Shown here piece after piece: positions 1 to 24,597 of a stretch of DNA of 64,000 nucleotides. The notes beneath the pieces were generated by a model that was not told the DNA's origin, made no database searches, and was given only the letters and a program-made list of their open reading frames with translations. The stretch comes from an uncultured Methanosarcinales archaeon. GTDB lineage: Archaea; Nanobdellota; Nanobdellia; Woesearchaeales; GW2011-AR9. The translations under genes and the position numbers were made by a program. The DNA is taken from positions 9,284-73,283 of the forward strand of contig CAZEAB010000004.1 in the NCBI GenBank assembly GCA_964510085.1, written 5' to 3'. Numbering within the stretch: position 1 is the stretch's first letter; each line of letters begins with the position of its first letter.

Positions 1-124
1 AAAGTAATTCAAACAACTCGAGTGGGGATAAAAGAAGACGTAGAATTACCTTGGCGGTTCTATCTAGCTGGCAATATGTATGTAAGTAGAAGGTAATGCC
101 CAGAATAGAATGATTTTGTGTAAT

Positions 125-181
125 GGGGGCCCTGACTTGTCGAGGTGGGTACTTCGTAGAAGTACGATACCACCGTGCCCC
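125..181 (-). ncRNA. Copy A of a recurrent structured motif (unclassified; RNA nature inferred)
   Basis: Minus strand reads GGGGCACG GUGG UAUC GUACUUC-UAC-GAAGUAC CCAC CUCGAC AA GUCAGGGCCCCC. It has the same invariant unpaired blocks and compensatory stems as the copies at 44913, 48423, 47079 and 33243. It is GC-rich in an AT-rich spacer. Transcription is not demonstrated. Confidence 0.5.
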
Positions 182-260
182 AATATACAAATTAATGTTT
201 ATTCTGGATGAAGATAAATGGAGATAATTATTTAAACTAGCTCTTCAAATTTTTAATTAT

Positions 261-395
261 GCGGGGGTGAGAGAGTGGTCAATTGTGAATCAGTGATGAA
301 CAATTTGTTCAGAAATCTCTGATTTCAGACAAAATCTGCCAGGTTGAGGGCCTGGTGCCTTAGTGGCTACGCGTGTTCGAACCACGTCCCTCGCA
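261..395 (+). tRNA. tRNA-Leu(GAG), class II, with an inferred ~51-nt intron in the D-loop/D-stem junction (about 283-333)
   Basis: Acceptor GCGGGGG (261-267) pairs with CCCTCGC (388-394, one G-U), and the discriminator is A395. D region is AGA-GAGUGGUCAA. Anticodon arm is CCAGG-UUGAGGG-CCUGG (339-355) with anticodon GAG at 346-348. There is a 15-nt variable arm (356-370) and a T arm GCGUG-UUCGAAC-CACGU (371-387). A T-run follows the 3' end. The D-stem 3' strand UCU-G (335-338) is separated from the D-loop by about 51 nt. Intron boundaries are approximate. Confidence 0.7.
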
Positions 396-478
396 CTTTT
401 TTAAAGAAGTAGAAAACGAGGAGTTTATTTTGTATTCACTTACGGAAAGTTTTTATATCTCAATGGGTATGGTTTCTT

Positions 479-859
479 ATGGCTCTTTCAAGAGAATCAG
501 TTTATCGCCAATGTTTGGAATTAGGTCTTCATCTTTCACATAGTTACGAGAATCTTGATGTCTTTACCACTCTTAATCCAAATAAAGCACTTGGACATCT
601 TGATTTAGTATATGACAGATTAAGTAGTGGAGTATTATTAACAGCACAAGAACCATTATCAACATCATACATTGAAGATACAAGCCCAAAAGCAGCATAT
701 CTACGTCTTATAAATAATGATTTACATAGTTTTCCAGAAGGGGAAGTCGAATTATACATGGCACGTAATGATTCTCCAAAAATTGTTTTTGTGGGAGGTG
801 GATTAGATAGACTACTTGATAGGCTTTTACCAGAATTAATGAAAGAAAGTCCAGCTTAA
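479..859 (+). CDS. hypothetical protein
   Basis: 126-aa ORF following the tRNA. I recognise no motif. Confidence 0.35.
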   Translation: MALSRESVYRQCLELGLHLSHSYENLDVFTTLNPNKALGHLDLVYDRLSSGVLLTAQEPLSTSYIEDTSPKAAYLRLINNDLHSFPEGEVELYMARNDSPKIVFVGGGLDRLLDRLLPELMKESPA

Positions 860-898
860 ATCCTTCGCACTATTCTTTAGAATAAAAAAATAAAAAAA

Positions 899-1294
899 TT
901 AAGCAGCGTGCTTATTCAACTCAATCTGTGCCAAAATCTGTGCAACAGGTGAAAGTAATAACCATAACACAAACATGCCAATTGCACTAAAACCACTTAA
1001 TTCCTCAAGAGCCTTACTATACTTCCAATAGTATAGTATTGCAACAACATATCCGACTAGTGGTATTAACATTAACCAAATCCACCATGGTTTTGGTGCC
1101 GATTGTGTTGTACGTTGTAATTCTCGTGTTGTTGATACTAGCCAATAAATCCCATAAATTCCTAATGTAATTAAAGTAAACAAAAACACTAAGAAAGGAT
1201 TTCTTTTTTTGATGCCACCTGTAGCTTCATGCACAATTTCAGTTTGTGGTTCAGCTGGAGCAGCTTCAGTTTCCGGAGCTTGTTCGTCTGCCAT
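899..1294 (-). CDS. small membrane protein, DUF4234-like
   Basis: Two or three hydrophobic helices and a GIYGIYWLV motif typical of DUF4234. The N-terminus is acidic and Pro/Ala-rich. Confidence 0.5.
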   Translation of the reverse strand: MADEQAPETEAAPAEPQTEIVHEATGGIKKRNPFLVFLFTLITLGIYGIYWLVSTTRELQRTTQSAPKPWWIWLMLIPLVGYVVAILYYWKYSKALEELSGFSAIGMFVLWLLLSPVAQILAQIELNKHAA

Positions 1295-1372
1295 ACTTAT
1301 AGAAAAACATTAATCTTTATATTATTTTGCAATTTCCAAAAGTATATAAACAAGAAGAAAATGATTTAATGT

Positions 1373-2176
1373 ATGGCATGGGAAGTTACACAAGAAGAGA
1401 AAACACTTCCTAAACTTAAGAACCCTTTATTTATTGAAGGATTACCAGGAATTGGAAATGTAGGGAAAATAGCAGTTGATTTCTTGATAGAAGAATTACA
1501 AGCGAAGAAACTCTATTCGTTTTTCTCTTATAAATTTCCTCATTCCGTATTTGTTAACGAAAAAAACCTTGTGGAAATGCCAAAAATAGAAATCTATTAC
1601 AAATCATTTGGTCCACGAAGTAAAAAAAGAGATTTATTATTATTAACAGGAGATATTCAACCAATTGATGAAGAAAGTTGTTTCACATTCTGTGAAGAAA
1701 TAATCAACATAGTCAAAAAATTTGGATGTTCTGAAATAATAACAACAGGCGGAATAGGATTACAATCAGTTCCACAAGAATCACGTGTATTTGCAACATC
1801 CAACAGCAATAAATTGCTCAAAGAATATACAACAAAAAAACTAGGTGTAGAAAAAAACATATTTGGAATAGTGGGACCAATTATCGGCGTTTCTGGACTA
1901 TTATTAGGACTAGGAAAAAAACGAAATGTTAAGGGGGTTGCACTTCTTGCAGAAACATACGGTCATCCAATGTATCTTGGAATAAAAGGAGCAAAAGAAT
2001 TACTAAAATTATTTGAAACAAAATTTAAATTTGGTATAAACTTAAAGAAAATGAGTAAAGAAATAATTGAAGTAGAAAAAGAGTTAATGAAGAAAACCAA
2101 AGAATGGGCAGCTGAAATGGGATCCGCTCGAGCAGGCGCCAAATTAAAAGAACAAGATGTAAGGTATATTGGGTAA
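1373..2176 (+). CDS. PAC2-family protein (proteasome assembly chaperone-like, COG1938)
   Basis: N-terminal LFIEGLPGIGNVGKIAVDFLIEEL motif and a 267-aa length typical of archaeal PAC2/PbaB-like proteins. Confidence 0.6.
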   Translation: MAWEVTQEEKTLPKLKNPLFIEGLPGIGNVGKIAVDFLIEELQAKKLYSFFSYKFPHSVFVNEKNLVEMPKIEIYYKSFGPRSKKRDLLLLTGDIQPIDEESCFTFCEEIINIVKKFGCSEIITTGGIGLQSVPQESRVFATSNSNKLLKEYTTKKLGVEKNIFGIVGPIIGVSGLLLGLGKKRNVKGVALLAETYGHPMYLGIKGAKELLKLFETKFKFGINLKKMSKEIIEVEKELMKKTKEWAAEMGSARAGAKLKEQDVRYIG

Positions 2177-2270
2177 TTGCCCGTTAACTGCACTCATGTC
2201 CCCCATAACTTCTACCAAAACACAAAAAATTCTACAAAAAACACTATTTTTACACACGACAACTCAACAC

Positions 2271-2282
2271 AAGCTTTATAAA
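2271..2282 (+). promoter_or_regulatory. BRE/TATA-like box AAGCTTTATAAA
   Basis: Ends 22 nt upstream of the ATG at 2305. The identical 12-mer occurs 27 nt upstream of sufB (51880-51891). Confidence 0.45.
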
Positions 2283-2304
2283 TCAATTTACTATACTAAA
2301 TGGT

Positions 2305-4266
2305 ATGCAGAAAAAGAGGTACAGTAGAGTCCTAGATAGACCTATTTTTAATAAGAGGGGTCAAGTAACTCTATTTATTATCCTTGGAATAGTTCTGCTT
2401 ATAATTCTCGTTCTCATCATACTTCTGCAGCGTGAAATAGTAACCATAACTCCAGGAAAAATAATTCCTGAAGCAAAAGATAAAATTGAAAACCAAATAA
2501 CTCTTTGTGTACAAGAAGTTGGGGAGGAAGCATTATTCAAAATTGGTCTTCAAGGGGGTTATCTTGAATTCTCAGATCAACAGCTCCGTGATGGAAATTA
2601 TGTATTACAAACACCTGTAACACCAACACCTTACTGGGCATATGGAAATACAATAGATATCCCCACATTACAATCAATCAAACAATCTGTTGATACATAT
2701 ATTGAAAACAACATAGAATCGTGCGTCTTTCCAGCAGGATTACAAGATGAAGAATTTTCATACATCTCACAGGGAACTGTAACATCGGATACAGAATTTA
2801 CCAATTCTAACGTATTGTATAACGTAGATTGGGAGATTGATGTACAAACAAAAGACGGTGAATTAGTGACAAAATTACTTCGTCATGAAACCAAATCAGA
2901 TATTAAATTTAAAGATTTATATGAAACTGCAACAAGAATAATTGAACAGGAAGTAAATGCACTTAAGTTTGAAGACATTACACAAGATCTTATTGCACTA
3001 GAACATCCAGATGTACCAGTAATGGGAATGGAAATAAGTTGTGCAGAAAAGAAATGGGCCCTCCCAACTGTACAAGAGACTCTCAAAGAATTAATCACCA
3101 CAAACATTCCTCAAATCAAGGTTTCGGGAACAGAAATAATAGACTTTCCAAAAGAGTTTCCATATTACCAGAATCATTACATCTGGGATGTTGGCGAAGA
3201 TTTTAGTAAGAAAGACGTTTCAGTAACATTCCGTTATCAAGAAAACTTTCCATTTTCATTTCAAGTAACTCCGCATGATGGTTCTTTCTTACGAAGTGGA
3301 ACACAAGGTGGTTCAGACATCTTATCGGCATTATGTGTGCAAATGTGGAAATTTACATATGATGTTTCATATCCTGTATTAATGAAAATAAAAGATGATA
3401 ACTCAGGATTTGTATTTAACACAGCATTTACAGTACATTTATTACGAAACAATCCAAGTAGGGAAAGTTTTGTTCAAGCATTAAACCCTGATTTAGTTTC
3501 AACCATTCCTGGAGACGACTTTTGCTCTAACAGACGTATTCCAATGACTATTCTAACATCTTCAGTAGTAGATAGTCCAGAAACAGGAGTTTCATTCTCT
3601 GAACCAGTTGAAGGAGTTAATGTTTCATTCACCTGTATCAAACACAAATGTGACATGGGTTCAACAGTACTTGACTTTGATAATAGAGGATACCAAGCAG
3701 GTTTTACTCGAAACTTCCCATTCTGTGTTGGTGGTATTTTACGAGCAACAAAAGAGGGTTATAAAGAATCTTGGCAACGTGTGTTAACTGAAAATTCAAA
3801 ACAAGTTGAAATAGAATTAACTCCATTACATCTCATTCCTGTGCAGAACGTAAAGATAGTTTCTCATGATGAAAAAGAAAATGGAGTTGGACCAGCAACA
3901 ACTCTTACAGAAGATGAAACTGCAATAGTAACTATAAAATCTCTCAAAAAGGATGAGAAAAACAAACCATTCCACGAATCAACAATAGTCACTTCAGCTT
4001 CAGGTTTAGATGTAGAAGGATTTAGTAACTTAGAATTATTAGCAGGAGCAGATTTCACATATGACTTTGATGTAACCGTGTTCAAGAATGATTTGTTTAT
4101 AGCAGGATACAAGGGAAACTGGACTGTCCAATGGGATGAATTGCAACCAAATTCACAGATTACAATACATACAATAGGTAAGGATATGACTCCAGAAGAA
4201 TCATTTGGATTCATTTCACAATTACATTCAAAATCACTACTGGTGCCATCACCAGAAATAAAATGA
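2305..4266 (+). CDS. large extracellular protein with type IV pilin-like (class III) signal peptide
   Basis: The N-terminus ...FNKRG|QVTLFIILGIVLLIILVLIILL fits the [KR]-G-[Q]-hydrophobic prepilin pattern. It is a paralog of the partial ORF at 63539, sharing C(V/I)(Q/E), QGGY and Y(I)(E/N)N..(E)..C blocks. Its stop overlaps the next start (ATGA at 4263-4266). Confidence 0.6.
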   Translation: MQKKRYSRVLDRPIFNKRGQVTLFIILGIVLLIILVLIILLQREIVTITPGKIIPEAKDKIENQITLCVQEVGEEALFKIGLQGGYLEFSDQQLRDGNYVLQTPVTPTPYWAYGNTIDIPTLQSIKQSVDTYIENNIESCVFPAGLQDEEFSYISQGTVTSDTEFTNSNVLYNVDWEIDVQTKDGELVTKLLRHETKSDIKFKDLYETATRIIEQEVNALKFEDITQDLIALEHPDVPVMGMEISCAEKKWALPTVQETLKELITTNIPQIKVSGTEIIDFPKEFPYYQNHYIWDVGEDFSKKDVSVTFRYQENFPFSFQVTPHDGSFLRSGTQGGSDILSALCVQMWKFTYDVSYPVLMKIKDDNSGFVFNTAFTVHLLRNNPSRESFVQALNPDLVSTIPGDDFCSNRRIPMTILTSSVVDSPETGVSFSEPVEGVNVSFTCIKHKCDMGSTVLDFDNRGYQAGFTRNFPFCVGGILRATKEGYKESWQRVLTENSKQVEIELTPLHLIPVQNVKIVSHDEKENGVGPATTLTEDETAIVTIKSLKKDEKNKPFHESTIVTSASGLDVEGFSNLELLAGADFTYDFDVTVFKNDLFIAGYKGNWTVQWDELQPNSQITIHTIGKDMTPEESFGFISQLHSKSLLVPSPEIK

Positions 4267-7200
4267 GTAACATAAGAAAAATATCTGTACTTCTTGTTAT
4301 CTTACTATTTGTTAATCTACCTCTTGTAAGTGCGTTACAATTCTCTGGAGTAGATGCAAAAGTAACCGAAAACTCTGCAGTAATTTCGTGGCAAACTGAT
4401 GAACCTGCAGATAGTTTCGTACGATATGGAACAGATAAAACACAGATGACCCCAATAGGAGATTCTGCTGAAGTTACCAGCCATTCACTTTCGATTACTG
4501 GCTTGCAACCTGAAACAACATATGTCTATGAAGTTGAAAGTAATAACGAGATTGACAACAACAATGGCTCTCTTTATTCATTCACAACTCCTACGCCAGA
4601 TACAACACCTCCAACACTTGATGTGAATATCTCCACAAAAATAAAAGGAACAACTTTAGAAGCAACAGGAACAACAGAAGCAGGAATAGAAGTAATTGTG
4701 TTACTCGGAACTGTTGAAGTAAAGAGAATAACAACAGATGAAACAGGAACATTTTCAGTAAAATTTACAATAGCACCAGACGTATTAAACCCAGTTACAT
4801 TTATTGCTAAAGATCCTTCCGGGAACACGGTTTCAAAATCATACAGTGTTTTATCAGATACAACAAGACCAAAAATAACATTACAGAAACTTCCTGACAT
4901 TATTGGAGATAAACAATTCTCATTAAATGGTACAATCTCAGAAAACAGTTCAATTGAAGTGTTATTAAACAATAAAAGTATTCATTCCTCTATTGGAACA
5001 TCTTTTGAAGCAAAATTAAACGTTAATGAAGGAACAAACAATCTTGTTGTAACAGCAACAGATTCAGCTGGTTGGGTTACGTCTCTTACAAAAAAACTTA
5101 ATTCAGACACAGAAGCACCAACAGTAAAGTTTGATGTGTCTAAAGGAACAGAATATTATGAATTTCAAGCAGAATCTTCAATTACCGGAACTACAGAACC
5201 AGGAGCGACTGTATATCTCTATGTCTTTGTACCACAAACGCAGGAAACACGATTACGGTTTGATAGAGCTCTTCAAAAAGTCACAGCAAATTCAGAAGGA
5301 AAGTTTATATTTGAAGAAGTAGATTTCTCTGGATTAGGAACGTCAACAATAGACACATTATCACCAACACATCTTCCTCCTGGCTTAGAGGGAATAATTC
5401 TTCCAAAGTTAGATAGAATTCAGCAAGCTCAACGAGTAAATTATAGAGTATATGTACTAGCGGAAGATAAATCCGGTAAAGTTGGCCATGCAACTAAAAC
5501 AGTATATGTAAACAGTTGTTCTTCTGGAGATTATGCATTTGATGTATTCGTTCCTCCACAATTTCCTGTACAACCATTAAAATTAAACCCGCTTCTTATG
5601 AAAGAAGGAAGAGAATCAATGTCTGTAGTGTATAACTTAACCTACAGAGGAGCAGCTCTACCAACAATAAACACTAATACTGGCGATACTGAAAACCCAT
5701 ACAGGATCTCAAATGTTAAATTTGAAAAAGCATGTACGAAAGCGAATGCCGATAAAGACGATTTTAATATTGGATGTAAATTAGCCCCTCGATTACTTAA
5801 TGGAAAGTCAATAAAATCAGATAAGACAATGTGGTTCTTAGAAACACCATTACTTCGCACGGAAGATTTCTCAGAGATTACAGATGATGTTCTCACAGAA
5901 TTTACAAAACGGCAACTTAAAATCCCGTTAAAGATAGTAGTTAATTATCAAGAACGAAATGTAGATGGAAGTTGGCAAGCAAAAACTCAAGTTGAATGTA
6001 GAGAAATAGGAAGTTTTGTTGATATCCCTATAGACTCTTCTTTATTAGTTCCAGATTCCCTTGCAGAATACACTGTAAGTGCAACAAATGAAACGTTACA
6101 TCAAATAAATCGTGTAAAGAAAATTTTAGATCCGCTTGTTAAATGGACTGGCGTAAGTTGTTATGGTTCTTGGTTGACGAAAGGGGTCTTAAAAATTAAC
6201 AGAGTTGTCGCTTCGTGGTATGAATCGTTCACACAAAAAGGAAGCAAAGACAAACCCGCATGTCCAACGCCAAGTAAACAACGAGAGATGTATCTTAAAT
6301 CTACATTAGATGACTGGAAGAAATTGCAATCAAAACATCCAAATGCTGCAGCAAGTATCCCAATAGATTTCAATAATGCTGAAGAACTTAAAAAGAAAAC
6401 ATTAGATGAAGCGTGTCCTTCAACAGCAGCTGCATGGGAACGAGAGGCATTCTTTGACAAATTATACAAAACAACCTGTGACAGATTCTTCTGTAGAAGT
6501 TCTCCATCAAGATGGACTGAAACAGAAACCGAAGAAGATGTAAAGAAAGTTGTATTAGATCAACAACAATGTGCTGCGTCAAGTAATTGTATCACCATGA
6601 CTCCAGTAGAGAATTGTCAGAATGAATTGAAAAAGAATCCTGCTGCGGGTGAAATTGTCCGAGTTCGTCAAGAGAAGGGATCATTTACCTGTTGGAGAGA
6701 CAGAGAAGGAACATTATATTATCATTGTACTGAAAATGATGCAGATGTAGAGTGTAAGAAACGTGCAGAATCACTTGAAGAGAAAGGTGTATGGATTTTA
6801 AAACCAGTATTATCTATTGGCAAGAGTAAACCAAAAATACTTGCACTTAAAGGAGAGTTAAATAACGTTGCATGCGTTGCTCAAGATAGAAAATGTAGTT
6901 CTGTATGTAAACGTAAGCAGGGATATGTTTCATCTAAATCTGGGTTCAAACAATCGGGAACAAAATATGTCGCTGGCGGTTCTTGTTACAAAGAAAATGC
7001 ACAAGGGAAATTAGAAGGTGTCAATGGAGTAAAAACCCACGCAAGTGCATTTACAGCAGGATATACACAAGATTGTTTCATTGCAGAAGATACGGGAGAT
7101 AAATACCAATGTGTGTGTGAACAGGATCAAGACATATTGAAAAAACAATCAAAAAAGGGTAGCAGAGAAGCACTACGAATGGAAAAAGATGTAGCAGAAC

Positions 7201-9722
7201 CGTGGATGTATAGACAAGAAAAAGTATACAAGGAAAGTAACGGCGATAAAGGAACGTATTACCCTGAATGGAGATATTATGGTGGAAGAGATTTCACAGC
7301 AGCATTCGGACTAAATCATGTAGCAGATCTTGTTGGAGAAAAAACAAACGCAAGAATAAACCCACGAGATTATGTTGGTGCATGGCAAACAATGTGTCTT
7401 CCACGAATTAACAACCAACTTACTGTAGCGCAAAGTGTGTTAACACAATTTCAAAACTGCGTAATACAAGCACAGAATTCAGAATTTCAAGATGCAGGTA
7501 TATGTAAAACATTCTTTGCAACAAACGTCTGTGGATGGTTATACAAGGGTATTTCCGCATTTACAAACCAATGTTCTCCATTTACATTTGATGACGTTGA
7601 AGGATTTGAAGAATTAGGTGACGGAGGAATTTCTGCATTTTCAAGAGCATTTAAGCAGGGAGTTCCTGAAGCACTAACAAGTAGCGTGAATGAATTAAAA
7701 GATGATTATGGAGCTCATGCACAAGAACAATTTAAAGTAGGAACACAAGGAGTTGCACAATCAATGTGTCTCTTCGCATTTGGTTACGATTTCCCAACAG
7801 ATTTTGATTTCATTACAGATGCAGCATATTCAACTCCAATGAAAACATCTGTGTCACCATTAATTGCAAACAGAGAATTTACTTCATTTGATCCAATAAG
7901 AGGGGTTCCAGAATTTACATATAATCTAGGAACTCTTGTAATACCAGGATGTCCTTTACGAGGATATAAAAGCTCTTTTGTCTGTATAGGAACAAACGAT
8001 TTAGGAAAACCAGGTATAGATCAAAGCTGTAGTGGACAGGGATGTGATTGTTTACAAGCATCAAATCAGAACTCTCCATTTGAAGCAGAGAAAACAAAAG
8101 TTATTCCAAGTGGAACAAAGAATGGAGTATTCCCACAATTTCAAGCAATTGATATTCCATATAAGAACCCGTTACAAGTTGAAAGCAATTTCAGATATGA
8201 CCACGTTAAATTAGAACTATACCTCGAATCTGGTGTTGACCCTAAAGAATGTTTTGATGAATCTGTTGCAACAAATGTCGGTGGAGAGATATACTTCCCA
8301 CTTTCGCATGTGGAAGGAAGAGAATTCGCACAATGTCAAGTACATGGGTCAACAGGGAGATATATCTGTCCTGCATTAAGTCAAATCTTCCAGCAAGGTG
8401 GCGCGTTCTTAGAACATCCATTTGTACAATGTTATGATAAGAGGGAAGATGAATTTGTAGATTGTCAACAACCAAATGTAATCCTTGTTGATGAAGAAAT
8501 AGTTGTGAAACCATATCTCTCAGCAATACAATCAGATTCTTGTTTAGTAATATCAGATAATAAAGGAAATGTAAAACATAACATCCTACTCCCTCAAAGT
8601 CCTGTACCAATCGCTCCTAGAATTAGTTTAGGAAAAGCAACCGCAAACTTACTTACTGGAGGACAAGTAGGAACTATAAGGAAAGTAGATTCACAAAGCG
8701 TGAGTGGCTGTGGAGGAAATGGAGGCCAAATAAATCAAATTGGATTCTCACAAACTTCAACAAAATCAAGAACGATGCCATTTGAATTTACAAGAATAAG
8801 TGGCAAATACCAATTACAAGTTCCTCATGGTATTACAGTAATACCAGGAACAGATAGTTTTGATATTAATACTAACAGATATTTAACAAAGAAAGGTGAG
8901 ATTACACTGTCTACGTCAGATGTTAACAAAGCAACATTTAGTGTTGATGGATATAGATTTAATCAAGTTCTTGGAACACCTTCACAATCTCATGGGAAAT
9001 GTGTTTATAGGACAGTTCCTTCTTATGGGGGGAAGATAAGTAAGGTTGGTGTTGGCTCAACCAGAATAAAGATTGAATTGAAACAACCAGGACCAGGAAA
9101 TAGTTGTTGGAAATCAACAAAACTTGTTGATAAAAATCCTCTTGGAAAGAACGTACATTCACAATCAATCAGGATTCAATCAGCGAAAATGGAATCTCAA
9201 TCGGTAATAACATTACATCAAGATTTCATGAATGGCAATTATCATCTCGTTGCATCAAAAGCACAAGATATTATTAAACAAGAAGAAAGTACAATGGAAG
9301 ATGCACTTGCATTATATTATTGGAGTGCAAGTTTAGTGATGCAAGGTATTGGAAATCATAACTCAGAAATTGTAAGTTTATTGAAGATATTCTTTAAACG
9401 AGAATTACAGGGGAAGAAATTATCAAATTATCCTCAAGGAGTTGTTGGTTTTGATGAGTATAAGAAAATTAGAACATATCTTTGTTTAGTAGATCAACAA
9501 GTCGGTTCACAGAATCAAAATCTATGTAAAGGCGTTGTGAGTTCTGGAACCCTATGTGCAAGTTCAACTGGATTAAAACCAGGATTCAAAAAACCAACAG
9601 GATGGAATTCATATGCATGTAAAGATTCAAAAGCGAAGGGATGTTTAGCATATACGCAATATGTTCCAAAAGGTGTAACAGGGAGGGGTTGTCCAAGTAG
9701 TCAACTATGTTGTCCAACATGA
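4263..9722 (+). CDS. giant secreted cysteine-rich protein (1819 aa; FN3-like and Ig-like N-terminal region)
   Basis: Sec-type signal MSNIRKISVLLVILLFVNLPLVSA, then an FN3-like segment (SAVISWQTDEPADSFVRYG...TTYVYEV) and Ig-like repeats. There are no Cys in the first ~415 aa and roughly 50 Cys (hand count) in the remaining ~1400 aa, ending CPSSQLCCPT. I recognise no catalytic motif. Confidence 0.7.
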   Translation: MSNIRKISVLLVILLFVNLPLVSALQFSGVDAKVTENSAVISWQTDEPADSFVRYGTDKTQMTPIGDSAEVTSHSLSITGLQPETTYVYEVESNNEIDNNNGSLYSFTTPTPDTTPPTLDVNISTKIKGTTLEATGTTEAGIEVIVLLGTVEVKRITTDETGTFSVKFTIAPDVLNPVTFIAKDPSGNTVSKSYSVLSDTTRPKITLQKLPDIIGDKQFSLNGTISENSSIEVLLNNKSIHSSIGTSFEAKLNVNEGTNNLVVTATDSAGWVTSLTKKLNSDTEAPTVKFDVSKGTEYYEFQAESSITGTTEPGATVYLYVFVPQTQETRLRFDRALQKVTANSEGKFIFEEVDFSGLGTSTIDTLSPTHLPPGLEGIILPKLDRIQQAQRVNYRVYVLAEDKSGKVGHATKTVYVNSCSSGDYAFDVFVPPQFPVQPLKLNPLLMKEGRESMSVVYNLTYRGAALPTINTNTGDTENPYRISNVKFEKACTKANADKDDFNIGCKLAPRLLNGKSIKSDKTMWFLETPLLRTEDFSEITDDVLTEFTKRQLKIPLKIVVNYQERNVDGSWQAKTQVECREIGSFVDIPIDSSLLVPDSLAEYTVSATNETLHQINRVKKILDPLVKWTGVSCYGSWLTKGVLKINRVVASWYESFTQKGSKDKPACPTPSKQREMYLKSTLDDWKKLQSKHPNAAASIPIDFNNAEELKKKTLDEACPSTAAAWEREAFFDKLYKTTCDRFFCRSSPSRWTETETEEDVKKVVLDQQQCAASSNCITMTPVENCQNELKKNPAAGEIVRVRQEKGSFTCWRDREGTLYYHCTENDADVECKKRAESLEEKGVWILKPVLSIGKSKPKILALKGELNNVACVAQDRKCSSVCKRKQGYVSSKSGFKQSGTKYVAGGSCYKENAQGKLEGVNGVKTHASAFTAGYTQDCFIAEDTGDKYQCVCEQDQDILKKQSKKGSREALRMEKDVAEPWMYRQEKVYKESNGDKGTYYPEWRYYGGRDFTAAFGLNHVADLVGEKTNARINPRDYVGAWQTMCLPRINNQLTVAQSVLTQFQNCVIQAQNSEFQDAGICKTFFATNVCGWLYKGISAFTNQCSPFTFDDVEGFEELGDGGISAFSRAFKQGVPEALTSSVNELKDDYGAHAQEQFKVGTQGVAQSMCLFAFGYDFPTDFDFITDAAYSTPMKTSVSPLIANREFTSFDPIRGVPEFTYNLGTLVIPGCPLRGYKSSFVCIGTNDLGKPGIDQSCSGQGCDCLQASNQNSPFEAEKTKVIPSGTKNGVFPQFQAIDIPYKNPLQVESNFRYDHVKLELYLESGVDPKECFDESVATNVGGEIYFPLSHVEGREFAQCQVHGSTGRYICPALSQIFQQGGAFLEHPFVQCYDKREDEFVDCQQPNVILVDEEIVVKPYLSAIQSDSCLVISDNKGNVKHNILLPQSPVPIAPRISLGKATANLLTGGQVGTIRKVDSQSVSGCGGNGGQINQIGFSQTSTKSRTMPFEFTRISGKYQLQVPHGITVIPGTDSFDINTNRYLTKKGEITLSTSDVNKATFSVDGYRFNQVLGTPSQSHGKCVYRTVPSYGGKISKVGVGSTRIKIELKQPGPGNSCWKSTKLVDKNPLGKNVHSQSIRIQSAKMESQSVITLHQDFMNGNYHLVASKAQDIIKQEESTMEDALALYYWSASLVMQGIGNHNSEIVSLLKIFFKRELQGKKLSNYPQGVVGFDEYKKIRTYLCLVDQQVGSQNQNLCKGVVSSGTLCASSTGLKPGFKKPTGWNSYACKDSKAKGCLAYTQYVPKGVTGRGCPSSQLCCPT

Positions 9723-10243
9723 AACAAGCAAGTGTAATGGTAAAATTAGTAGTATTCTTGATTGTTATAGTGGTAACAAGTTCAATTGTGTTGTTATTAG
9801 TTCGCACAGGAGTAGTAGATCCAACGGGAGAACAACAAGATGTATTAAATGTTGATTTTATTCCTATTGCAACTGGTTCGTTGAGTATTCGTAGCGTTTC
9901 ATTATGTGGTTCACTAATTGAGTTTGAATGTCTTGAAACAGAAGAGTTTTCAGTTGGACAAAAGGTTAATGTGTTGTTCTTAGTTGAGACAGATGTAGAT
10001 GCTGGCAGAGTGTTGTTAATTAGAAGTTATACGGTTAAAGATTCAGCTGGAAATGTTGTATTTGCATCTTCAGGAAATAATAATGTAGTCTTTGAAGAAA
10101 CAAGTGAAAAATCAGTAGAATTAATTGGCTTTTCAGATTCATTTACTCCAGGCGGAGTTGGTGAGTTTGTATTGGAAGCTATTGTTGAAAATCCAATCTT
10201 GGGAAAGAAAGTATCTGCAAGTAAGAGGTTTGTGATAGGATGA
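9707..10243 (+). CDS. single-pass membrane protein with beta-rich ectodomain
   Basis: N-terminal TM KLVVFLIVIVVTSSIVLLLV. The likely true start is ATG 9719, which forms an ATGA overlap with the upstream stop at 9720-9722. Its own stop overlaps the next start at 10240-10243. Confidence 0.5.
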   Translation: MLSNMKQASVMVKLVVFLIVIVVTSSIVLLLVRTGVVDPTGEQQDVLNVDFIPIATGSLSIRSVSLCGSLIEFECLETEEFSVGQKVNVLFLVETDVDAGRVLLIRSYTVKDSAGNVVFASSGNNNVVFEETSEKSVELIGFSDSFTPGGVGEFVLEAIVENPILGKKVSASKRFVIG

Positions 10244-13200
10244 AATGGGCTGTGTTAGTGGTGATGTTAGTTCTTGCTAGTTCTATGGTTCTTGCTGAAT
10301 CTTTTGGTGGTCCTGGTGGAACAGAGTTTGTATTGGATTGTGGTGAAGGTTACTTAATTAATGGAATTGGTGGAAAAGAAGGAGCGTTAATAGATCAGTT
10401 ATTTGTCAATTGTATTAATCCGTTTAAAGATGAAGGTCAACGGAGAAGTATAAAAGAAGCAGGAGGAAAAGGTGGAGAAGATTTTGCATTTTTTTGTCAT
10501 GAAAGGAAATATGTTTCAAAAATCAATATGCACAAAGCAGGAGATTTTATTTCAGGATTACAAGCAGTATGTACTGATGGAACAAAATCAAAAATATTTG
10601 GAACGGAACAAAAAGGATTTGATTCTTTATTTTGTGATGCAAAGAATCCAGCTTTATCAACAATAGCTGGGAAAGCAGGAAATTTTTTAGATTCAATTAG
10701 TTTTGATAGATCTGTATGCCATATAATCCCAACAGCAGAAGATATTCTCAATGCGAAAATACCTCAAGAAGTAAGAAATGCCGAAGCTCCAATTGGGTTA
10801 CCAGAAATTGGAACAGAAACTCCTACAGAAGAAAATGGTGTGTTTACATGGAATAAAGAAGGAGTAGAGATTGTATATGATGGAAATAATATTGTATGGA
10901 AGAATTCTCTTGGAGAATGGGTTCTTGACATTAATTCTAAATCTAAAAGCTTTCAATCGACAACTCAATCAGTTAACTATTGGTCATTAGACAAAGTAAT
11001 TAATAGTGTTAACGTACCTTCCGGATTTCCAACACCGGATAGGAATGCAGATTGGAATATAGAGAAAGAAAGAAAACATATAAAAATTAATGTTGATGAA
11101 TGGGAAGTAACGTATTTTGTAGATGGAAGCAAGCAATGGAGGCGTGCAGATATAGCATACTCTGTATGGGCCGAGAGTAGCATTGGAAAATTCTTCCTTG
11201 GAAAACGTGAAGATTGGGGAGCATTAAAAGATACAGAAACAGGACCACCATTAGGTGTGCCAGGTTATTCAGGAAATCCAGCAAGTTCTATCTCCATATT
11301 TGATGGAGTATATGATTATTGGGATGTAAATGAATGGAGAATCTTTAAGAAACAAAACGAGAATGAATTTATATGGCAACGTGGTGGAAGGTGGTATTAT
11401 TATGATAATGGAAAACAAGTAAGCCAACCATATGCATCAGAATGGCCTTCTCCACATAGTTTCTCTCCTACATTTGAAACAAGTGGAAGTTCTTGGGTAT
11501 TAAGTAATAATGCTGCTAAGAAAATACAAGACCCATCACTTCAATGTGTTGGTAAATCTATTGGAATAACTGGAGCGTCAAATACCGTTGGTTCTCAAAG
11601 TTGGGCAAATAAACATTTACAAAAATTATGCGGTTCGAAATCAAAAATAAAAGTAAAAGCTACAGGTGGTTGGGGTCCTACAAAACAAAAAGCATTCTTA
11701 ACAAAAGATTTTCTTACACATAATAACGCCCCTTTAGATATTTTGGTAATTAATCCTTCCGGAAATTCTATTACTGGAGGCTCATGTAAAGATATGTACA
11801 AAGATCTAGATACAATGATTAACACCGCATTTGAAAATAATGTGAAGAAAGTTGCTGTAATGACTATTAGCCCTCGTTCAAACTGGCAGAAGAATTGTGT
11901 TGTAAAATATAATAACGGTTTACAAAAATTTATCACAGAGAATATTCAATCTTCACGAGCAGCAAAAGTACAGGTAATACATATTGAAAATGCGCTTATA
12001 ACTCCAGATAAACCAACCCATTGTGCATATTGTAACAAAGGGAATCAACGACATTGGAATTCAGAAGGACATTCACGAGTTGCAGCAGCAGTATATCAAA
12101 ACTTATTTGCTGCGCCAGGAGATTATACCCCAGAACAGATTACCAATTTACGTCGACAATTCGGATTAACATACTCACAGAAGGATGGTGCTGCTGTTTC
12201 AACACCATCTCCACCTATTTTTGACCAGAATTGTTTAGATTTGAATACATGTAAAGAAATTGATGAAGCATGGGGAAAATTATCTAAAGGACTTGGTGTA
12301 GGTGGAAAACCAGCTGAAAATGTATGGGTGAGAGATGCTGGCTGGAAGAAGTTTGAGGATGTGTATAGAAAAGTAACTGTTGAGAGTAGTAAAGGTTCTC
12401 AAAAAAGTCCAGTACCTGTATCAAATGCAATTGATATTTCCCATCATCAGGGTAAGATTGATTGGAAGAAGGTTAAAGCAGCAGGAATAGATTATGCATT
12501 CATTAAAGCATCTGAACATACAACATTTGTTGATAAAAGATTTAAAGAAAATGTAAAGAACGCACAAGCTGCAGGTGTTGAAGTTCTCGGATTATATCAT
12601 TTTGCACAACCAATGAAAAATAGTGCAGTAGAAGGAGCACAACATTTTGTAGAAACAACGAAGGGATACCTTGGAAATGGTATTAGGCCAGTATTAGATG
12701 TGGAAGCAGGAAAAGAATTAGGGAAGAAAGGCGTTTCAGATTGGGTTCTTACGTGGTTACAACATGTTGAAAAGAAAACAGGTCAGAAACCAATAATATA
12801 TGGAGGCAATTACGCTCGTAATTATATGGATGAGAGAATCGTCGATAAATATGATTTGTGGTATGCAAGTTGGACACATAATCCTAACAAAAAGCCAAGA
12901 AGTCCGAGTCCATGGAGTGGATATAAATACTGGCAATATAGTGATAGGGGAAGTGTAGATGGTATTTCTGGAGATGTAGATTTAGATGTTGTAAAAGTAA
13001 CATCTGGTCTTATTGCAGGAATTACAGATGAACAGATAGAGGCACATCAACCTAAAGTTATAGAAGAGAAAGTTGTTAAATATGATACGTTTGAAGTAAA
13101 AACAACATTTAGAGGATTCTTAGATGGAAGTTCTGGAAATGATAGACAAGAATACAAATATTTTATCTTACATGATGGTTCTGCAAATAAAATCCCAGAA

Positions 13201-13707
13201 TGTAATCTTGCAGTTGCAAAAACCGTTGGGTTATGGAAAGCTCGTGCAGTACTTCAAAATTCAAAAGTATCTTCTCATTATTACATATGTCATGACGGAA
13301 CAATTCACCAAATATTAGCAGATCAACGTGTAGGATATCATGCTGGCTGTCCATATAAAGGAAGTCCAAAAGAGTTATGTCCAATCTCTAATGTTAATAG
13401 AAGGTCAATTGGAATAGATTTCCAGAACTATGGTGGAGCAGTGAACTCATATACTGGTTCTAAGTATACGCAAGCGCAATATGATGCAGCTAATAACTTA
13501 ATGGCCTTCCTTGGTAATCTTCACAATATCCCTGTAGATGATGAACATATTCTAGGACATTTTGAAGTTACCAAAACAGTAAAGACAGCAGCCCAATTAA
13601 ACAAAAATGACCCCTATCCTCCATTTGATTGGTCTAAGATCGCAGGATTGAAGTATGACCATCAGCAGAAGAATGGTCCTAAGATGGATCCATTAGTTAC
13701 AGGATAA
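10240..13707 (+). CDS. secreted multidomain peptidoglycan hydrolase (beta-prism lectin-like + SGNH esterase-like + GH25 muramidase + amidase_2)
   Basis: - Signal peptide MKWAVLVVMLVLASSMVLA.
- About 10297-10725: three GGxGGxxF...I.G..G..ID/IS repeats (jacalin-like beta-prism).
- About 11545-12100: SGNH-like blocks (GASNTVG, PSGNS, HWNSEGH).
- About 12424-12995: GH25 signature (DISHHQGKIDW...FIKASEH...AGVEVLGLYHF...DVE).
- About 13150-13635: amidase_2/AmpD-like (SSHYYICHDGTIHQ...GYHAG...SIGIDFQN...ILGHFEV...KNDPYPPFDW). Confidence 0.8.
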   Translation: MKWAVLVVMLVLASSMVLAESFGGPGGTEFVLDCGEGYLINGIGGKEGALIDQLFVNCINPFKDEGQRRSIKEAGGKGGEDFAFFCHERKYVSKINMHKAGDFISGLQAVCTDGTKSKIFGTEQKGFDSLFCDAKNPALSTIAGKAGNFLDSISFDRSVCHIIPTAEDILNAKIPQEVRNAEAPIGLPEIGTETPTEENGVFTWNKEGVEIVYDGNNIVWKNSLGEWVLDINSKSKSFQSTTQSVNYWSLDKVINSVNVPSGFPTPDRNADWNIEKERKHIKINVDEWEVTYFVDGSKQWRRADIAYSVWAESSIGKFFLGKREDWGALKDTETGPPLGVPGYSGNPASSISIFDGVYDYWDVNEWRIFKKQNENEFIWQRGGRWYYYDNGKQVSQPYASEWPSPHSFSPTFETSGSSWVLSNNAAKKIQDPSLQCVGKSIGITGASNTVGSQSWANKHLQKLCGSKSKIKVKATGGWGPTKQKAFLTKDFLTHNNAPLDILVINPSGNSITGGSCKDMYKDLDTMINTAFENNVKKVAVMTISPRSNWQKNCVVKYNNGLQKFITENIQSSRAAKVQVIHIENALITPDKPTHCAYCNKGNQRHWNSEGHSRVAAAVYQNLFAAPGDYTPEQITNLRRQFGLTYSQKDGAAVSTPSPPIFDQNCLDLNTCKEIDEAWGKLSKGLGVGGKPAENVWVRDAGWKKFEDVYRKVTVESSKGSQKSPVPVSNAIDISHHQGKIDWKKVKAAGIDYAFIKASEHTTFVDKRFKENVKNAQAAGVEVLGLYHFAQPMKNSAVEGAQHFVETTKGYLGNGIRPVLDVEAGKELGKKGVSDWVLTWLQHVEKKTGQKPIIYGGNYARNYMDERIVDKYDLWYASWTHNPNKKPRSPSPWSGYKYWQYSDRGSVDGISGDVDLDVVKVTSGLIAGITDEQIEAHQPKVIEEKVVKYDTFEVKTTFRGFLDGSSGNDRQEYKYFILHDGSANKIPECNLAVAKTVGLWKARAVLQNSKVSSHYYICHDGTIHQILADQRVGYHAGCPYKGSPKELCPISNVNRRSIGIDFQNYGGAVNSYTGSKYTQAQYDAANNLMAFLGNLHNIPVDDEHILGHFEVTKTVKTAAQLNKNDPYPPFDWSKIAGLKYDHQQKNGPKMDPLVTG

Positions 13708-13757
13708 ACATAAGATTTTTAAAGAAACCACATCTCTAGCCATATGGACACACATAT

Positions 13758-13885
13758 GGCCCCGTAGCATAGTCTGGTGGTGCGCACGACTGATATTGAC
13801 TATGCAGTTATCGTGAGGTCCGGAGTTCAAATATTAGCGTTTGATAATAATTTCGAACGTTAGTGAGAAAGTCTCCGCGGGGCCA
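13758..13885 (+). tRNA. tRNA-Ile(GAU) with two inferred introns (canonical 37/38, 14 nt; T-arm, 40 nt)
   Basis: Perfect 7-bp acceptor GGCCCCG (13758-13764) / CGGGGCC (13878-13884) with discriminator A13885. D arm is GCAU-AGUCUGGUG-GUGC. Anticodon stem is CACGA (13785-13789) / UCGUG (13811-13815), with loop CUGAUA + 14-nt insert (13796-13809) + A. Variable region is AGGUC. T stem CGGAG (13821-13825) and loop UUCAAAU are followed by a 40-nt insert (13833-13872) before CUCCG (13873-13877). A T-run follows. Confidence 0.7.
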
Positions 13886-13949
13886 CTTCTTTTTCTAATC
13901 CCCATAATAACAACGCATATAAACCTCAACAAAATCATTTAGTTGATAG

Positions 13950-14690
13950 ATGTTAAAACAAACGTTTCTACACATACCAGGAATATCTAAAGAAGTGGAG
14001 TCACATATTTGGCAAAATAATATTCTCAACTGGAATGAATTCCTCGAGTCCTCACATTCAATAAACTTACCTTCTTCAAAAGTGTTGAAAATTAGAGAAC
14101 ATATAGCACGATCTCATATAGCGCTCCAAAACAAAAACCATAACTTCTTTAGCTTACCAAGTAAAGAAGAATGGAGACTTTACAGAGAATTTAAAGATCA
14201 TTGTTGCTTCTTAGATATTGAAACAACTGGATTAAGTCGGCATTATAATCACATTACCACCATTGGAGTTTATGATGGAGAAAAAAGTCGTATATTTGTC
14301 AAAGACCAAGATTTACATGAATTTGCACAAGAAATTGCAAAATATAAAGTAATAGTGACATTCAATGGAAAATGTTTTGACTTACCTTTCCTTCGAGAGA
14401 CGTTTCCAGAAATTAACTTTAACCACATTCACCTCGATTTACGATATATCATGCGTGATCTTGGTTTTTCTGGTGGGTTAAAGAGGATAGAGAGAGAAGT
14501 TGGTATTACACGAGATAATCATCTAGCTGAAGTTGATGGTTTTGAAGCAGTACGCTTATGGAGGCGCTATAAAAGTGGTGACAAACAAGCGTTACAACTC
14601 CTAAAACAATATAATGAAGCAGATGTAGTTAATCTGAAAACCCTTATGGAATTCTCTTATGACAAATTAAAAGAGAGAACTTTATTCTAA
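13950..14690 (+). CDS. RNase H-like / 3'-5' exonuclease superfamily protein (YprB-like)
   Basis: Contains CCFLDIETTGL (Exo I-like DxE) and VTFNGKCFDLPFL (Exo II-like). TATA-like CATATAAACC lies about 25 nt upstream. Confidence 0.55.
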   Translation: MLKQTFLHIPGISKEVESHIWQNNILNWNEFLESSHSINLPSSKVLKIREHIARSHIALQNKNHNFFSLPSKEEWRLYREFKDHCCFLDIETTGLSRHYNHITTIGVYDGEKSRIFVKDQDLHEFAQEIAKYKVIVTFNGKCFDLPFLRETFPEINFNHIHLDLRYIMRDLGFSGGLKRIEREVGITRDNHLAEVDGFEAVRLWRRYKSGDKQALQLLKQYNEADVVNLKTLMEFSYDKLKERTLF

Positions 14691-14753: not shown

Positions 14754-15770
14754 ATGCTAACACAGGGGGTGTGGTTTACTATGAATAAATATATAATTAC
14801 AATTTTGGCTTTAGCATTAATTTTAGTAGGATGTACTGAATATCAGAAGTACGATGCAACAGAAGAAGATTTAAGTTTAATTGATGAAATAGCAAAAATA
14901 GAAGATGAATTAGCGAATACAGATAATCCTGATTTTGAATTATTAGAAGAAGTAGAAGAAACAGTTGAAGAAGAAGTTGTTCTACCAAATCCGAAAGAAG
15001 AACAAGTTCTTATGGAAGATGCGTTAACCGTTTCAGTAAAAGAAAATGAAGCAGTGAAATTAAATGTAAAAGTAACAGATCCGGATGAAGACCCAGTAAC
15101 CTATACATTTACCGCACCATTAGATGAAAATGGTGAATGGAAGACAAACTACGGAGATGCAGGCGAATATCTTGTTACAATCACAGCAACTGACGGAAAA
15201 TTAACTACAGAAAAGAGAGTCAACATTGTAGTTGAAAGAGTTAATGTACCTCCAGTAATTGCAGAAGTAGCAGATATTGTCGTTAAAGAAGGAGAAACAG
15301 TTACATTTGAACCTACTGTAACAGATCCAAACAACGACGCAGTATCAGTAAATGTCGCAGAACCTCTTACAAGCGGCACATTTGTTACAGATCATACCAG
15401 TGCAGGTGAATATGCAATAACAGTACTTGCAACAGACGGCGAGTTAGATTCAGAAAAATCATTCAAACTAACTGTGCATGACGTAAATGAAAAACCAATC
15501 ATTACCGGTGTTGAAGATATCACCATAAAAGAAGGTGAAGTAATTACTATTAAACCAGTAGTCTCAGATTTAGATGAAGACCCATTAGTAATTACAATAA
15601 GTCAACCAGTTGGAGATGACGGAATTTGGGAAACGTCTTACACTGACCATGGTGAGTATAAGATTAGCATCGCTGCAGACGATGGCAAAGACAGAGTTAC
15701 TCAACAAATTACTGTAGTAATTGAAGATGTGAACAAAGCTCCAGAAATTGTGGACATAAGTCTACAATAA
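14754..15770 (+). CDS. surface lipoprotein with cadherin-like/Ig-like repeats
   Basis: The start is probably ATG 14781, preceded by the SD-like GGGGGTG, which gives MNKYIITILALALILVGC (lipobox-like). After an acidic linker come three ~85-aa repeats of the type V(K/T)EGE.V...P.V.DPD.D...Y....PL...G.W.T.Y.DAGEY.V...A.DG with VN.PP(V/I)I linkers. Confidence 0.65.
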   Translation: MLTQGVWFTMNKYIITILALALILVGCTEYQKYDATEEDLSLIDEIAKIEDELANTDNPDFELLEEVEETVEEEVVLPNPKEEQVLMEDALTVSVKENEAVKLNVKVTDPDEDPVTYTFTAPLDENGEWKTNYGDAGEYLVTITATDGKLTTEKRVNIVVERVNVPPVIAEVADIVVKEGETVTFEPTVTDPNNDAVSVNVAEPLTSGTFVTDHTSAGEYAITVLATDGELDSEKSFKLTVHDVNEKPIITGVEDITIKEGEVITIKPVVSDLDEDPLVITISQPVGDDGIWETSYTDHGEYKISIAADDGKDRVTQQITVVIEDVNKAPEIVDISLQ

Positions 15771-15787
15771 TTTTTTTCTTTTTTACA

Positions 15788-24324: not shown

Positions 24325-24597
24325 ATGGAACTACGAGAAGAGAAGCTTTCTAGAGCAATTAGCGCATTTTCTAGACGACAGATTCTTAGGCTTCTCGCTG
24401 ACGGGGACATGACTGTAAAAGAAATCGCCACCTCCACAAAGATGAGCATGTCCCTTGCTTCTCGTCATCTTTCCATGCTTAGAGATTTAGGAATTTTAGA
24501 CGTAAAAAGAAAACATCCATTCAAATTCTATTCATTAAAAATCAAAGAAATTAAAGGATTATTAGACATCTATGATAAGGTGATACAGAAAATATGA
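24325..24597 (+). CDS. ArsR/SmtB-family winged-helix transcriptional regulator
   Basis: 90 aa. RRQILRLLADGDMTVKEIATSTKMSMSLASRHLSMLRDLGIL is a typical ArsR HTH. Its stop overlaps the next start (ATGA at 24594-24597). Confidence 0.65.
   Translation: MELREEKLSRAISAFSRRQILRLLADGDMTVKEIATSTKMSMSLASRHLSMLRDLGILDVKRKHPFKFYSLKIKEIKGLLDIYDKVIQKI

Follow-up and report, generated by a model that had tools for sequence, protein, structure and literature searches.

We analysed a window of 64,000 nucleotides from an uncultured archaeon of the Woesearchaeales (GenBank assembly GCA_964510085.1, contig CAZEAB010000004.1, positions 9,284 to 73,283 of the forward strand; nucleotide positions below are those of this window unless another contig is named). 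It contains a cassette of four genes, here called A to D, whose second member, gene B, encodes a giant secreted protein with 50 cysteines. The original prediction, made from the sequence alone, described this giant as a heavily disulfide-bonded extracellular scaffold and as the possible structural core of the module at 2305-13707. The four open reading frames (ORFs) of this module have no intergenic gaps and overlap at every junction (ATGA at 4263, 16 nucleotides at 9707-9722 and 4 nucleotides at 10240), and a tRNA gene follows them. A and C encode pilin-like proteins and D a secreted enzyme. The source organism is a tiny, probably symbiotic archaeon of the Woesearchaeota type, with a genome of 1.06 Mb that is 97% complete. 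Comparison with related genomes revealed that the giant belongs to a large archaeal protein family with conserved cysteines, that pairs of these cysteines are gained and lost together, and that the gene keeps fixed partners on either side.

The frame of gene B is open throughout and its 1,819-residue product begins with a signal peptide, as had been predicted. A script counted exactly 50 cysteines, the first at residue 419, leaving residues 1-418 Cys-free; the earlier hand count had given about 50, with none in roughly the first 415 residues. The motifs QCVCEQ, QGCDC and LCCPT pointed out at that time were located at residues 949-954, 1259-1263 and 1815-1819, respectively. The cysteine density of the body is 3.6%, against 1.1% on average across the genome. 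Chance does not account for the difference between head and body, since the probability of finding no cysteine in 418 residues is 2.5e-7 at the body rate and 0.009 at the genome mean rate. The head has an isoelectric point of 4.7; among homologs its length ranges from 0 to 783 residues, and it is Cys-free in 87 of 132 of them. Its FN3-like and Ig-like (immunoglobulin-like) character was recognised by both Pfam and NCBIfam, which matched FN3, Big_6 and Glucodextran_B/Big_13 domains in the head only (in Pfam, Pur_ac_phosph_N/fn3 at residues 35-109, Big_6 at 126-193 and Glucodextran_B, with Big_13 also, at 214-278). A family profile compared with the sequences of the PDB matched, in the head, only a biofilm-associated surface protein and FN3 domains.

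The N-terminal signal peptide is the sole hydrophobic segment of the giant and a C-terminal anchor is absent, from which secretion is predicted. This signal is of the ordinary Sec type, unlike the pilin-type signals of the neighbours A and C. The start at 4263 is supported by the signal peptide conserved in homologs and by the ATGA overlap with gene A. In the database the gene is called as P0002, with 1,674 residues; this call begins at an internal methionine (window 4263-4700 region) and lacks both the signal peptide and the FN3 domain, so that automated annotation would overlook the secretion of the giant.

A word-indexed search with the giant returned 29 clusters at 32-54% identity, nearly all of 1,700-2,200 residues, and the names found among them were only those of hypothetical proteins of 'archaeon', 'Nanoarchaeota archaeon' and 'Candidatus Woesearchaeota archaeon'. 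With residues 415-1614 as query, an exhaustive phmmer search gave 358 representative clusters, 179 of them at E <= 1e-30 and nearly all of 1.5-2.7 thousand residues. In distant homologs, too, a head of FN3/Ig type precedes a body without annotation, and the stretch that survives best in them corresponds to residues ~975-1415 of the giant. It had been considered that the ORF might be a fusion of unrelated genes or the product of a frameshift; because homologs keep the same length and architecture, the giant can be taken as a real gene and not as an artefact of either kind. In a sample of 301 genomes of the phylum, a profile search detected the body in 119, across dozens of families of the same order, and it is present in 35 of the 36 genomes of the giant's own family, usually at one locus. 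The same housekeeping neighbours, such as PAC2, flank this locus in different genera. Possible paralogs in the source genome matched at the level of FN3 only. The giant is kept order-wide, in more diverged form outside its own family, at a cost of about 0.5% of a 1-Mb genome.

Conservation of the cysteines, which the original prediction had named as a point to check, proved to be high. Among 24 close homologs, 35 of them never vary, and in an alignment of 132 homologs, down to about 22% identity, about 36 occur in at least 87% of the sequences; in a diverse set of 36 sequences, 17 are invariant and 12 nearly invariant. We mapped the gains and losses of cysteines on a FastTree phylogeny by Fitch parsimony. 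Seven pairs were gained or lost jointly on the same branches of the tree: 633-739 (7 of 7 events shared), 776-871 (8 of 8), 744-1045 (4 of 4), 1390-1401 (5 of 5-6), 785-810 (4 of 4-5), 878-950 (2 of 2) and 1241-1263 (2 of 2). No sequence retained a lone cysteine of the pairs 633-739, 744-1045, 776-871 and 1241-1263, and for 878-950 the lone-Cys exceptions were alignment gaps only. Repeated, independent and simultaneous change of this kind is the expected mark of disulfide partners, and no such pattern would be predicted for metal sites.

The source genome also encodes a VKOR-thioredoxin fusion (CPFC and CGVC motifs), a second VKOR and a membrane-anchored DsbA-like protein (CPFC), so that this DPANN genome of 1 Mb has a complete set of genes for forming disulfides outside the cytoplasm. 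From the conserved and covarying cysteines, together with these oxidative-folding genes, we infer the disulfide chemistry of the giant. The conservation and pairwise change of the cysteines, the signal peptide and the VKOR/DsbA genes all support the earlier view of a heavily disulfide-bonded extracellular scaffold. That view had also held such a protein to be unusual for archaeal surface proteins. This is true of archaea in general but not of the source genome, in which Cys-rich secreted giants are common: since at least 10 other secreted proteins contain at least 3.5% cysteine (for example 78 cysteines in 2,015 residues, or 62 in 1,725), the giant is not unique in this respect in its own genome, and Cys richness is a trait of the organism's secreted proteins generally. 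Taken with the VKOR/DsbA genes, the many paired cysteines suggest that these archaea have an extracellular proteome rich in disulfides, which to our knowledge is unusual among archaea. Unrelated large secreted Cys-rich proteins lie outside the window at C1:159849-164183, C1:167651-173698 and C18:4801-22625, the last of these being a whole cluster. Their sizes are 1,444 residues with 52 cysteines, 2,015 with 78, 1,725 with 62, 777 with 52, and others, and they display EGF-like or TSP3-like Cys/Asp repeats as well as LamG-like and ricin-like regions.

In order to describe the body, AlphaFold2 models were computed from 28-sequence alignments for two segments, residues 405-1135 and 1105-1819, with predicted local distance difference test (pLDDT) scores of 75.8 and 76.4, respectively. 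The segment boundary at 1105-1135 splits the most conserved helical domain in both models, and because it cuts this helical core confidence is low at residues 1105-1190. Segment-wise modelling followed by Foldseek, the approach suggested with the original prediction, yielded beta-sandwiches around a helical core and no specific fold match. Part I of the helical core opens with a 60-residue helix (598-657) in the model, and the pairs 633-739 and 744-1045 would act there as putative staples. Part II is the most conserved stretch of the superfamily, and distant homologs match mainly there and in the next sandwich. The covariation of cysteines 744 and 1045 ties parts I and II into one composite core. 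The RYDH motif (residues 1311-1314) lies in the beta-sandwich array and is listed among the features as invariant; in the residue-by-residue comparison, D1313 is invariant and R1311 and Y1312 nearly so. Coordinates of all these features are given in Table 1.

Residues 420-1819 gave no match in Pfam, NCBIfam, PHROGs, PADLOC or PDB sequences, and the body likewise remained without a match when the family profile was compared with PDB sequences. No consistent signal appeared in the body when Pfam was run at E <= 1 on 17 diverse homologs. These library searches agree with the earlier remark that no catalytic or repeat motif could be named in this region. Foldseek found nothing meaningful for the model of residues 405-1135 (best E of 0.06 in the PDB and 0.006 among the BFVD viral models) and, for residues 1105-1819, only generic tandem sandwiches (integrin alpha legs, alpha-2-macroglobulin, Gram-positive adhesins) at a TM score of about 0.1. 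The core of the giant is therefore an orphan fold, that is, one without a match in the PDB and viral structures and in the family libraries searched. Its invariant residues other than cysteine (D587, R647, E728, D740, R741, Y983, R984, R1009, D1010, K1082, Y1149 and D1313) could be structural or could mark a binding or catalytic site. Two other candidates were rejected. A thioester motif at CVCEQ (950-954) was discarded on its spacing, which differs from that of CGEQ, and on its E and Q, which are not conserved. A membrane-active or fusogenic function was dismissed in view of the lack of any hydrophobic or amphipathic segment past the signal peptide and of any match to a fusion-protein fold.

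Table 1. Position of the cassette, of the parts of the giant and of the disulfide-forming genes of the same genome. Residue numbers are those of the protein concerned.
Feature	Position	Strand	Basis
TATA-like box CTTTATAAAT, ~22 nt 5' of the first gene of the operon	2274-2283	+	sequence reading
Gene A, 653 residues, class III (type IV pilin-like) signal KRGQVTLFIILG..., 8 Cys	2305-4266	+	
Gene B, secreted giant of 1,819 residues	4263-9722	+	
Giant, signal peptide, residues 1-24, ...LPLVSA/LQ	4263-4334	+	sole hydrophobic segment; kept in homolog consensus
Giant, Cys-free acidic head, residues 31-415, FN3 and Ig-like	4353-5507	+	Pfam, NCBIfam, PDB profile search
Giant, first Cys-bearing beta-sandwich, residues ~425-585; C419, C491, C505 and C579 invariant	5535-6017	+	AlphaFold2 model md7165f765ef0
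Giant, helical core part I, residues ~598-790	6054-6632	+	AlphaFold2; covarying Cys pairs
Giant, mixed alpha/beta insert, residues ~800-1000, QCVC motif, Cys pairs 785-810 and 878-950	6660-7262	+	
Giant, helical core part II, residues ~1040-1190, motifs GRDxxxxFG and DAGxCK..F....C	7380-7832	+	
Giant, beta-sandwich array, residues ~1196-1640, pLDDT ~90	7848-9182	+	AlphaFold2 model m6ee87547f9be
Giant, C-terminal helical domain, residues ~1643-1755	9189-9527	+	AlphaFold2 model
Giant, variable Cys-rich tail, residues 1756-1819, low confidence, without membrane anchor	9528-9719	+	
Gene C, 178 residues, pilin-like N-terminal helix, 2 conserved Cys; 16-nt overlap with the end of the giant	9707-10243	+	
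Gene D, secreted enzyme of 1,155 residues: jacalin-like, GH25 muramidase and Amidase_2	10240-13707	+	Pfam, PHROGs
Tag in gene D, residues 664-717, NCLDLNTCKEIDEAWGKL...W..F.DVY	12229-12390	+	hidden Markov model
VKOR-thioredoxin fusion	C3:47703-48521 (outside window)		
Small second VKOR	C9:19866-20276 (outside window)		
DsbA-like protein	C12:2733-3539 (outside window)		

Gene A lies directly 5' of the giant with overlapping stop and start codons in every family examined, and the two genes are predicted to be translationally coupled across the order. In distant families A is better conserved than the giant itself. All eight cysteines and the K/R-G/A-Q-I/V-T signal of A are kept down to 27% identity. 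The signal of the protein from the window, which reads ...NKRGQVTLFIILGIVLL, is of class III and was kept in 6 of 7 homologs. Gene A had no match in Pfam, NCBIfam or PHROGs; more generally, Pfam, NCBIfam, PHROGs and PADLOC searches with the giant, A and C recognised the head domains of the giant only. In one locus (L021, G147:C4:506000-525999) a second, diverged pair at positions 2-4257 immediately precedes the main A-giant pair, with an A-like protein followed by a secreted protein of 1,051 residues and 27 cysteines, as if the unit of two genes had been duplicated in tandem.

On the other side, homologs of gene C were found directly 3' of the giant in 27 of the 27 family loci examined, and C, like A, is predicted to be coupled to the giant in translation. 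The N-termini of this family also conform to a class III signal, with K-K-G-S-x-x-x-E/Q followed by a hydrophobic helix. The fifth residue past K-K-G is E or Q in most C homologs (L025-L040), like in classical type IV pilins, and K in the copy of the window (KQASVMVKL). The genome encodes a prepilin peptidase (Peptidase_A24) at C9:16696-17040 and, in the window at 60847-63141 on the minus strand, a T2SSE-type (type II/IV secretion) ATPase of 764 residues. No other ATPase of this type was detected in the genome, and this one could serve as the motor in any assembly of pilin-like proteins.

Comparison of the same position across genomes identified gene D as the variable cargo of the cassette. 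Past C, each of 18 further family loci has between one and three genes for secreted proteins in which domains are shuffled, and the domains found 3' of C in 16 further genomes comprise Amidase_2, SLT, Peptidase_M15_4, M23, glucosaminidase, DUF2272, SGNH/GDSL esterase, calcineurin-like phosphoesterase (Metallophos) and DUF218. An all-against-all BLAST first drew attention to a short stretch common to these downstream enzymes, from which a hidden Markov model (HMM) was built. This model detected a module of about 50 residues, C-x5-6-C-K-E-I-D-E-V-W...W..F..VYP, hereafter the tag, at variable positions in 21 of the 23 downstream proteins. The source genome holds a single copy, at residues 664-717 of protein D. 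Among the 301 sampled genomes the tag occurs in 32, and 31 of these are in the giant's family (31 of its 36 genomes). Of 38 tag hits, 35 follow a giant encoded on the same strand, at a distance of 0.7-7 kb, and two are on other contigs. The remaining hit is weak (E = 8e-6) and falls within the C-terminus of another family's giant, in genome G021. In this protein of 2,117 residues (locus L020, G021:C4, ORF 7599-13952 on the minus strand), a tag-like motif, CDECQAIDEAWGRL...W, is followed by a Cys-rich tail of about 170 residues. This single, unconfirmed case might represent a tag fused to a giant. An iterated, stricter HMM found no tag fused to a giant among about 170 giants and did not recover the G021 hit.

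Synteny thus bears out the idea of the giant as the structural core of the module, A and the giant being linked order-wide and C and the tagged enzyme family-wide. In one family, the giant is genetically tied to rotating enzymes that cut the bacterial wall and bear a private tag.

On this basis, we propose that the giant is a rigid, pilin-anchored adhesion and scaffold subunit that presents wall-degrading enzymes to bacteria, a reading in which we place about as much trust as doubt. The giant would be exported via the Sec pathway and fold outside the cell into a rigid body, stapled by roughly 18-25 disulfides that machinery of the VKOR/DsbA type would form. From its N-terminus onwards, the predicted layout consists of the acidic Cys-free FN3/Ig head, a Cys-bearing beta-sandwich, the helical core with its alpha/beta insert, a stalk of sandwiches and a C-terminal helical domain. 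Having no anchor of its own, the protein would depend on A and C to keep it on the cell surface or on the end of a short type-IV-like filament, by analogy with the minor pilins that carry PilY1 in bacteria. A, B and C would then make up a constant adhesion and scaffold platform in contact with bacterial cells, at which the tagged wall-cutting enzymes would act, perhaps docked via the tag. We infer the physical A-B-C complex, the docking of D via its tag and bacteria as the target.

Several points weigh against this proposal. The disulfides, expression, localisation and complex formation of the giant are all read from sequence, and the AlphaFold2 models are of moderate confidence, with the most conserved helical domain split between them. 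We know of no bacterial partner for these archaea. The downstream position is occupied not just by wall-cutters but also by phosphoesterase, esterase and TSP3-repeat proteins, and the tag might bind peptidoglycan or protein C instead of the giant. The link to the enzymes is, moreover, confined to one family (31 of 36 genomes) and near-absent in the many other families that have A and B, which excludes attack on the wall as what the giant did ancestrally or does in general. Since A and B form a pair of much greater age and spread than C and the tag, the giant must have had a broader ancestral role, for instance adhesion or envelope structure.

A bolder version of the same proposal, which we hold as tentative and rather unlikely, would see in the A-B-C trio a previously unrecognised archaeal organelle for engaging bacteria across domains. 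The FN3/Ig head of the pilin-anchored, disulfide-stapled giant with its orphan fold would bind the bacterial surface and the tag would dock interchangeable murein hydrolases, esterases and phosphoesterases, much as in a cellulosome for the bacterial wall, with predation, parasitism or scavenging as its use in Woesearchaeales. Members of this order and of the Pacearchaeales rank among the most abundant archaea still uncultivated, and the locus offers a concrete set of proteins that bears on their lifestyle and possible bacterial partners. If the complex and the docking are real, they would provide a direct molecular handle on the contact between archaeon and bacterium, and would represent a new mode of enzyme display on the cell surface.

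The main rival to the scaffold proposal, in our opinion an unlikely one, is that the giant is the principal surface-layer (S-layer)-type protein of the envelope, forming an outer canopy for which A would be the membrane stalk, as in SlaA/SlaB, and that the enzymes are merely co-transcribed. The near-universal presence of the giant, as a rule at a single locus in a genome and with housekeeping genes such as PAC2 around it, would suit such a function, as would the association of this large protein without anchor with a partner that is smaller, anchored and better conserved; the giant is also largely made of Ig-like domains and one weak Foldseek match (rank 17) is an S-layer protein. However, A and C carry pilin-type signals and not the C-terminal anchor of SlaB, and the giant is detectable in just ~40% of the sampled genomes of the phylum. 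It has 7 N-glycosylation sequons where 14 are expected, with none past residue 609. Co-transcription alone is insufficient to explain an enzyme tag that is strictly bound to the giant locus. The few sequons, the pilin-type partners and the private tag thus argue weakly against an S-layer role.

The orphan core could alternatively be an enzyme or a specific glycan-binding module, acting for example on a bacterial or archaeal envelope polymer, with disulfides that merely stabilise it. Invariant polar and aromatic residues do cluster in the conserved core across sequences of about 22% identity, and a helical domain followed by beta-sandwiches is a common layout in polysaccharide lyases and hydrolases. 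But the searches gave no family or fold match and no known catalytic motif is recognisable, and the invariant charged residues fit structural salt bridges equally well; we therefore regard this explanation as clearly improbable. We judge it very improbable that the giant is a stand-alone secreted adhesin that takes part in no complex, the gene order then reflecting the shared regulation of surface proteins. Its FN3/Ig head does resemble the stalks of bacterial biofilm and adhesin proteins, but it lacks an anchor of its own, its start/stop overlaps are kept with A throughout the order and with C throughout the family, and in distant families conservation is higher for A than for the giant. Finally, we find it hardly credible that the cassette is what is left of a virus or mobile element, its products being a receptor-binding protein and an endolysin. 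Protein D does match phage endolysin families, but A, B and C have no PHROG match and Foldseek against viral models found nothing, and a mobile-element origin was rejected on the synteny, with the same housekeeping neighbours in different genera, and on the near-universal presence (35 of 36 family genomes).

Other large surface proteins are encoded in the window on the plus strand. A secreted protein of 2,222 residues (24594-31262) contains three LamG/ConA-like domains and Ig-like domains with just 4 cysteines, unlike the giant, and may be another adhesin or envelope protein. At 14754-18097, two adjacent surface proteins of 338 and 769 residues consist of PKD/cadherin-like/Big_9 repeats, with one or two cysteines each.

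Among published work on these lineages, Castelle et al. 2021 (PMC8204110) describe a module of 51 families specific to Pacearchaeota and Woesearchaeota, mostly uncharacterised and often extracellular, of which they discuss just the large SLT-domain proteins; these large extracellular proteins with murein-transglycosylase domains form fam00969. Vigneron et al. 2022 (PMC9723730) propose 'vampiristic' Woesearchaeota on the basis of murein transglycosylases and a haemolysin-like gene, and Strock et al. 2025 (PMC12352652) show bacteria to be killed by archaeal peptidoglycan hydrolases. The likeness of our locus to fam00969 and to the hydrolases of Strock et al. lies in the lineages, which are the same, in archaea that engage bacterial walls and in protein D, which belongs to such an enzyme class. 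The difference is that enzymes are described in those papers, whereas the giant itself has no enzyme domain. Term look-ups in these three articles found neither the giant nor its pilin-like partners nor the tag, and literature searches with targeted look-ups in the retrieved texts returned no description of the giant's protein family.

The bacterial alpha-2-macroglobulin YfhM, encoded with PBP1c, is comparable as a giant secreted protein of multiple sandwiches beside a peptidoglycan enzyme, and weak Foldseek matches to arrays of macroglobulin (MG) domains recall it. The giant differs in having no CGEQ motif and a TM score of about 0.1 only; Pfam gave no A2M-family or thioester-domain match in the giant, and 1 of 17 homologs showed a sub-threshold bMG3 match (E = 0.16). 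In SlaA/SlaB of Sulfolobales, too, the outer protein is large and without anchor, and the gene beside it encodes a membrane-anchored partner that is smaller and better conserved. Here, however, the anchors are N-terminal and pilin-like, and the giant is Cys-rich, poor in sequons, linked to tagged enzymes and devoid of any sequence or fold similarity to that system.

A constant giant scaffold with changing polymer-degrading enzymes that share one short private module at variable positions resembles the scaffoldin and dockerins of the cellulosome of Clostridia. This resemblance would be functional only: no cohesin or dockerin domain of Pfam was found in the giant, its 17 homologs or the 21 downstream enzymes. 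It also differs in that each genome has just 1-3 tagged enzymes, the substrate would be bacterial murein and the binding of tag to scaffold is putative. PilY1/PilC and its FimU-PilVWX tip complex provide a further parallel, with a large, Sec-secreted and anchorless adhesin encoded in one operon with adjoining pilin-like proteins, and, as for the type IVa pilus tip, with the genes of a prepilin peptidase and of an assembly ATPase in other parts of the genome. Compared to PilY1, the giant is larger, disulfide-rich and archaeal, with a core fold that has no detectable relative; the beta-propeller of PilY1/PilC (Neisseria_PilC) and vWA domains had no Pfam match in the giant or 17 homologs, and Foldseek found no propeller. 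One of the 'pilins' here is, unlike those of the type IVa tip, 653 residues long, and the filament is putative. We rate the giant as akin to known large multi-domain surface adhesin and scaffold complexes, and there is a substantial chance that the A-B-C-D assembly as a whole is something not yet described.

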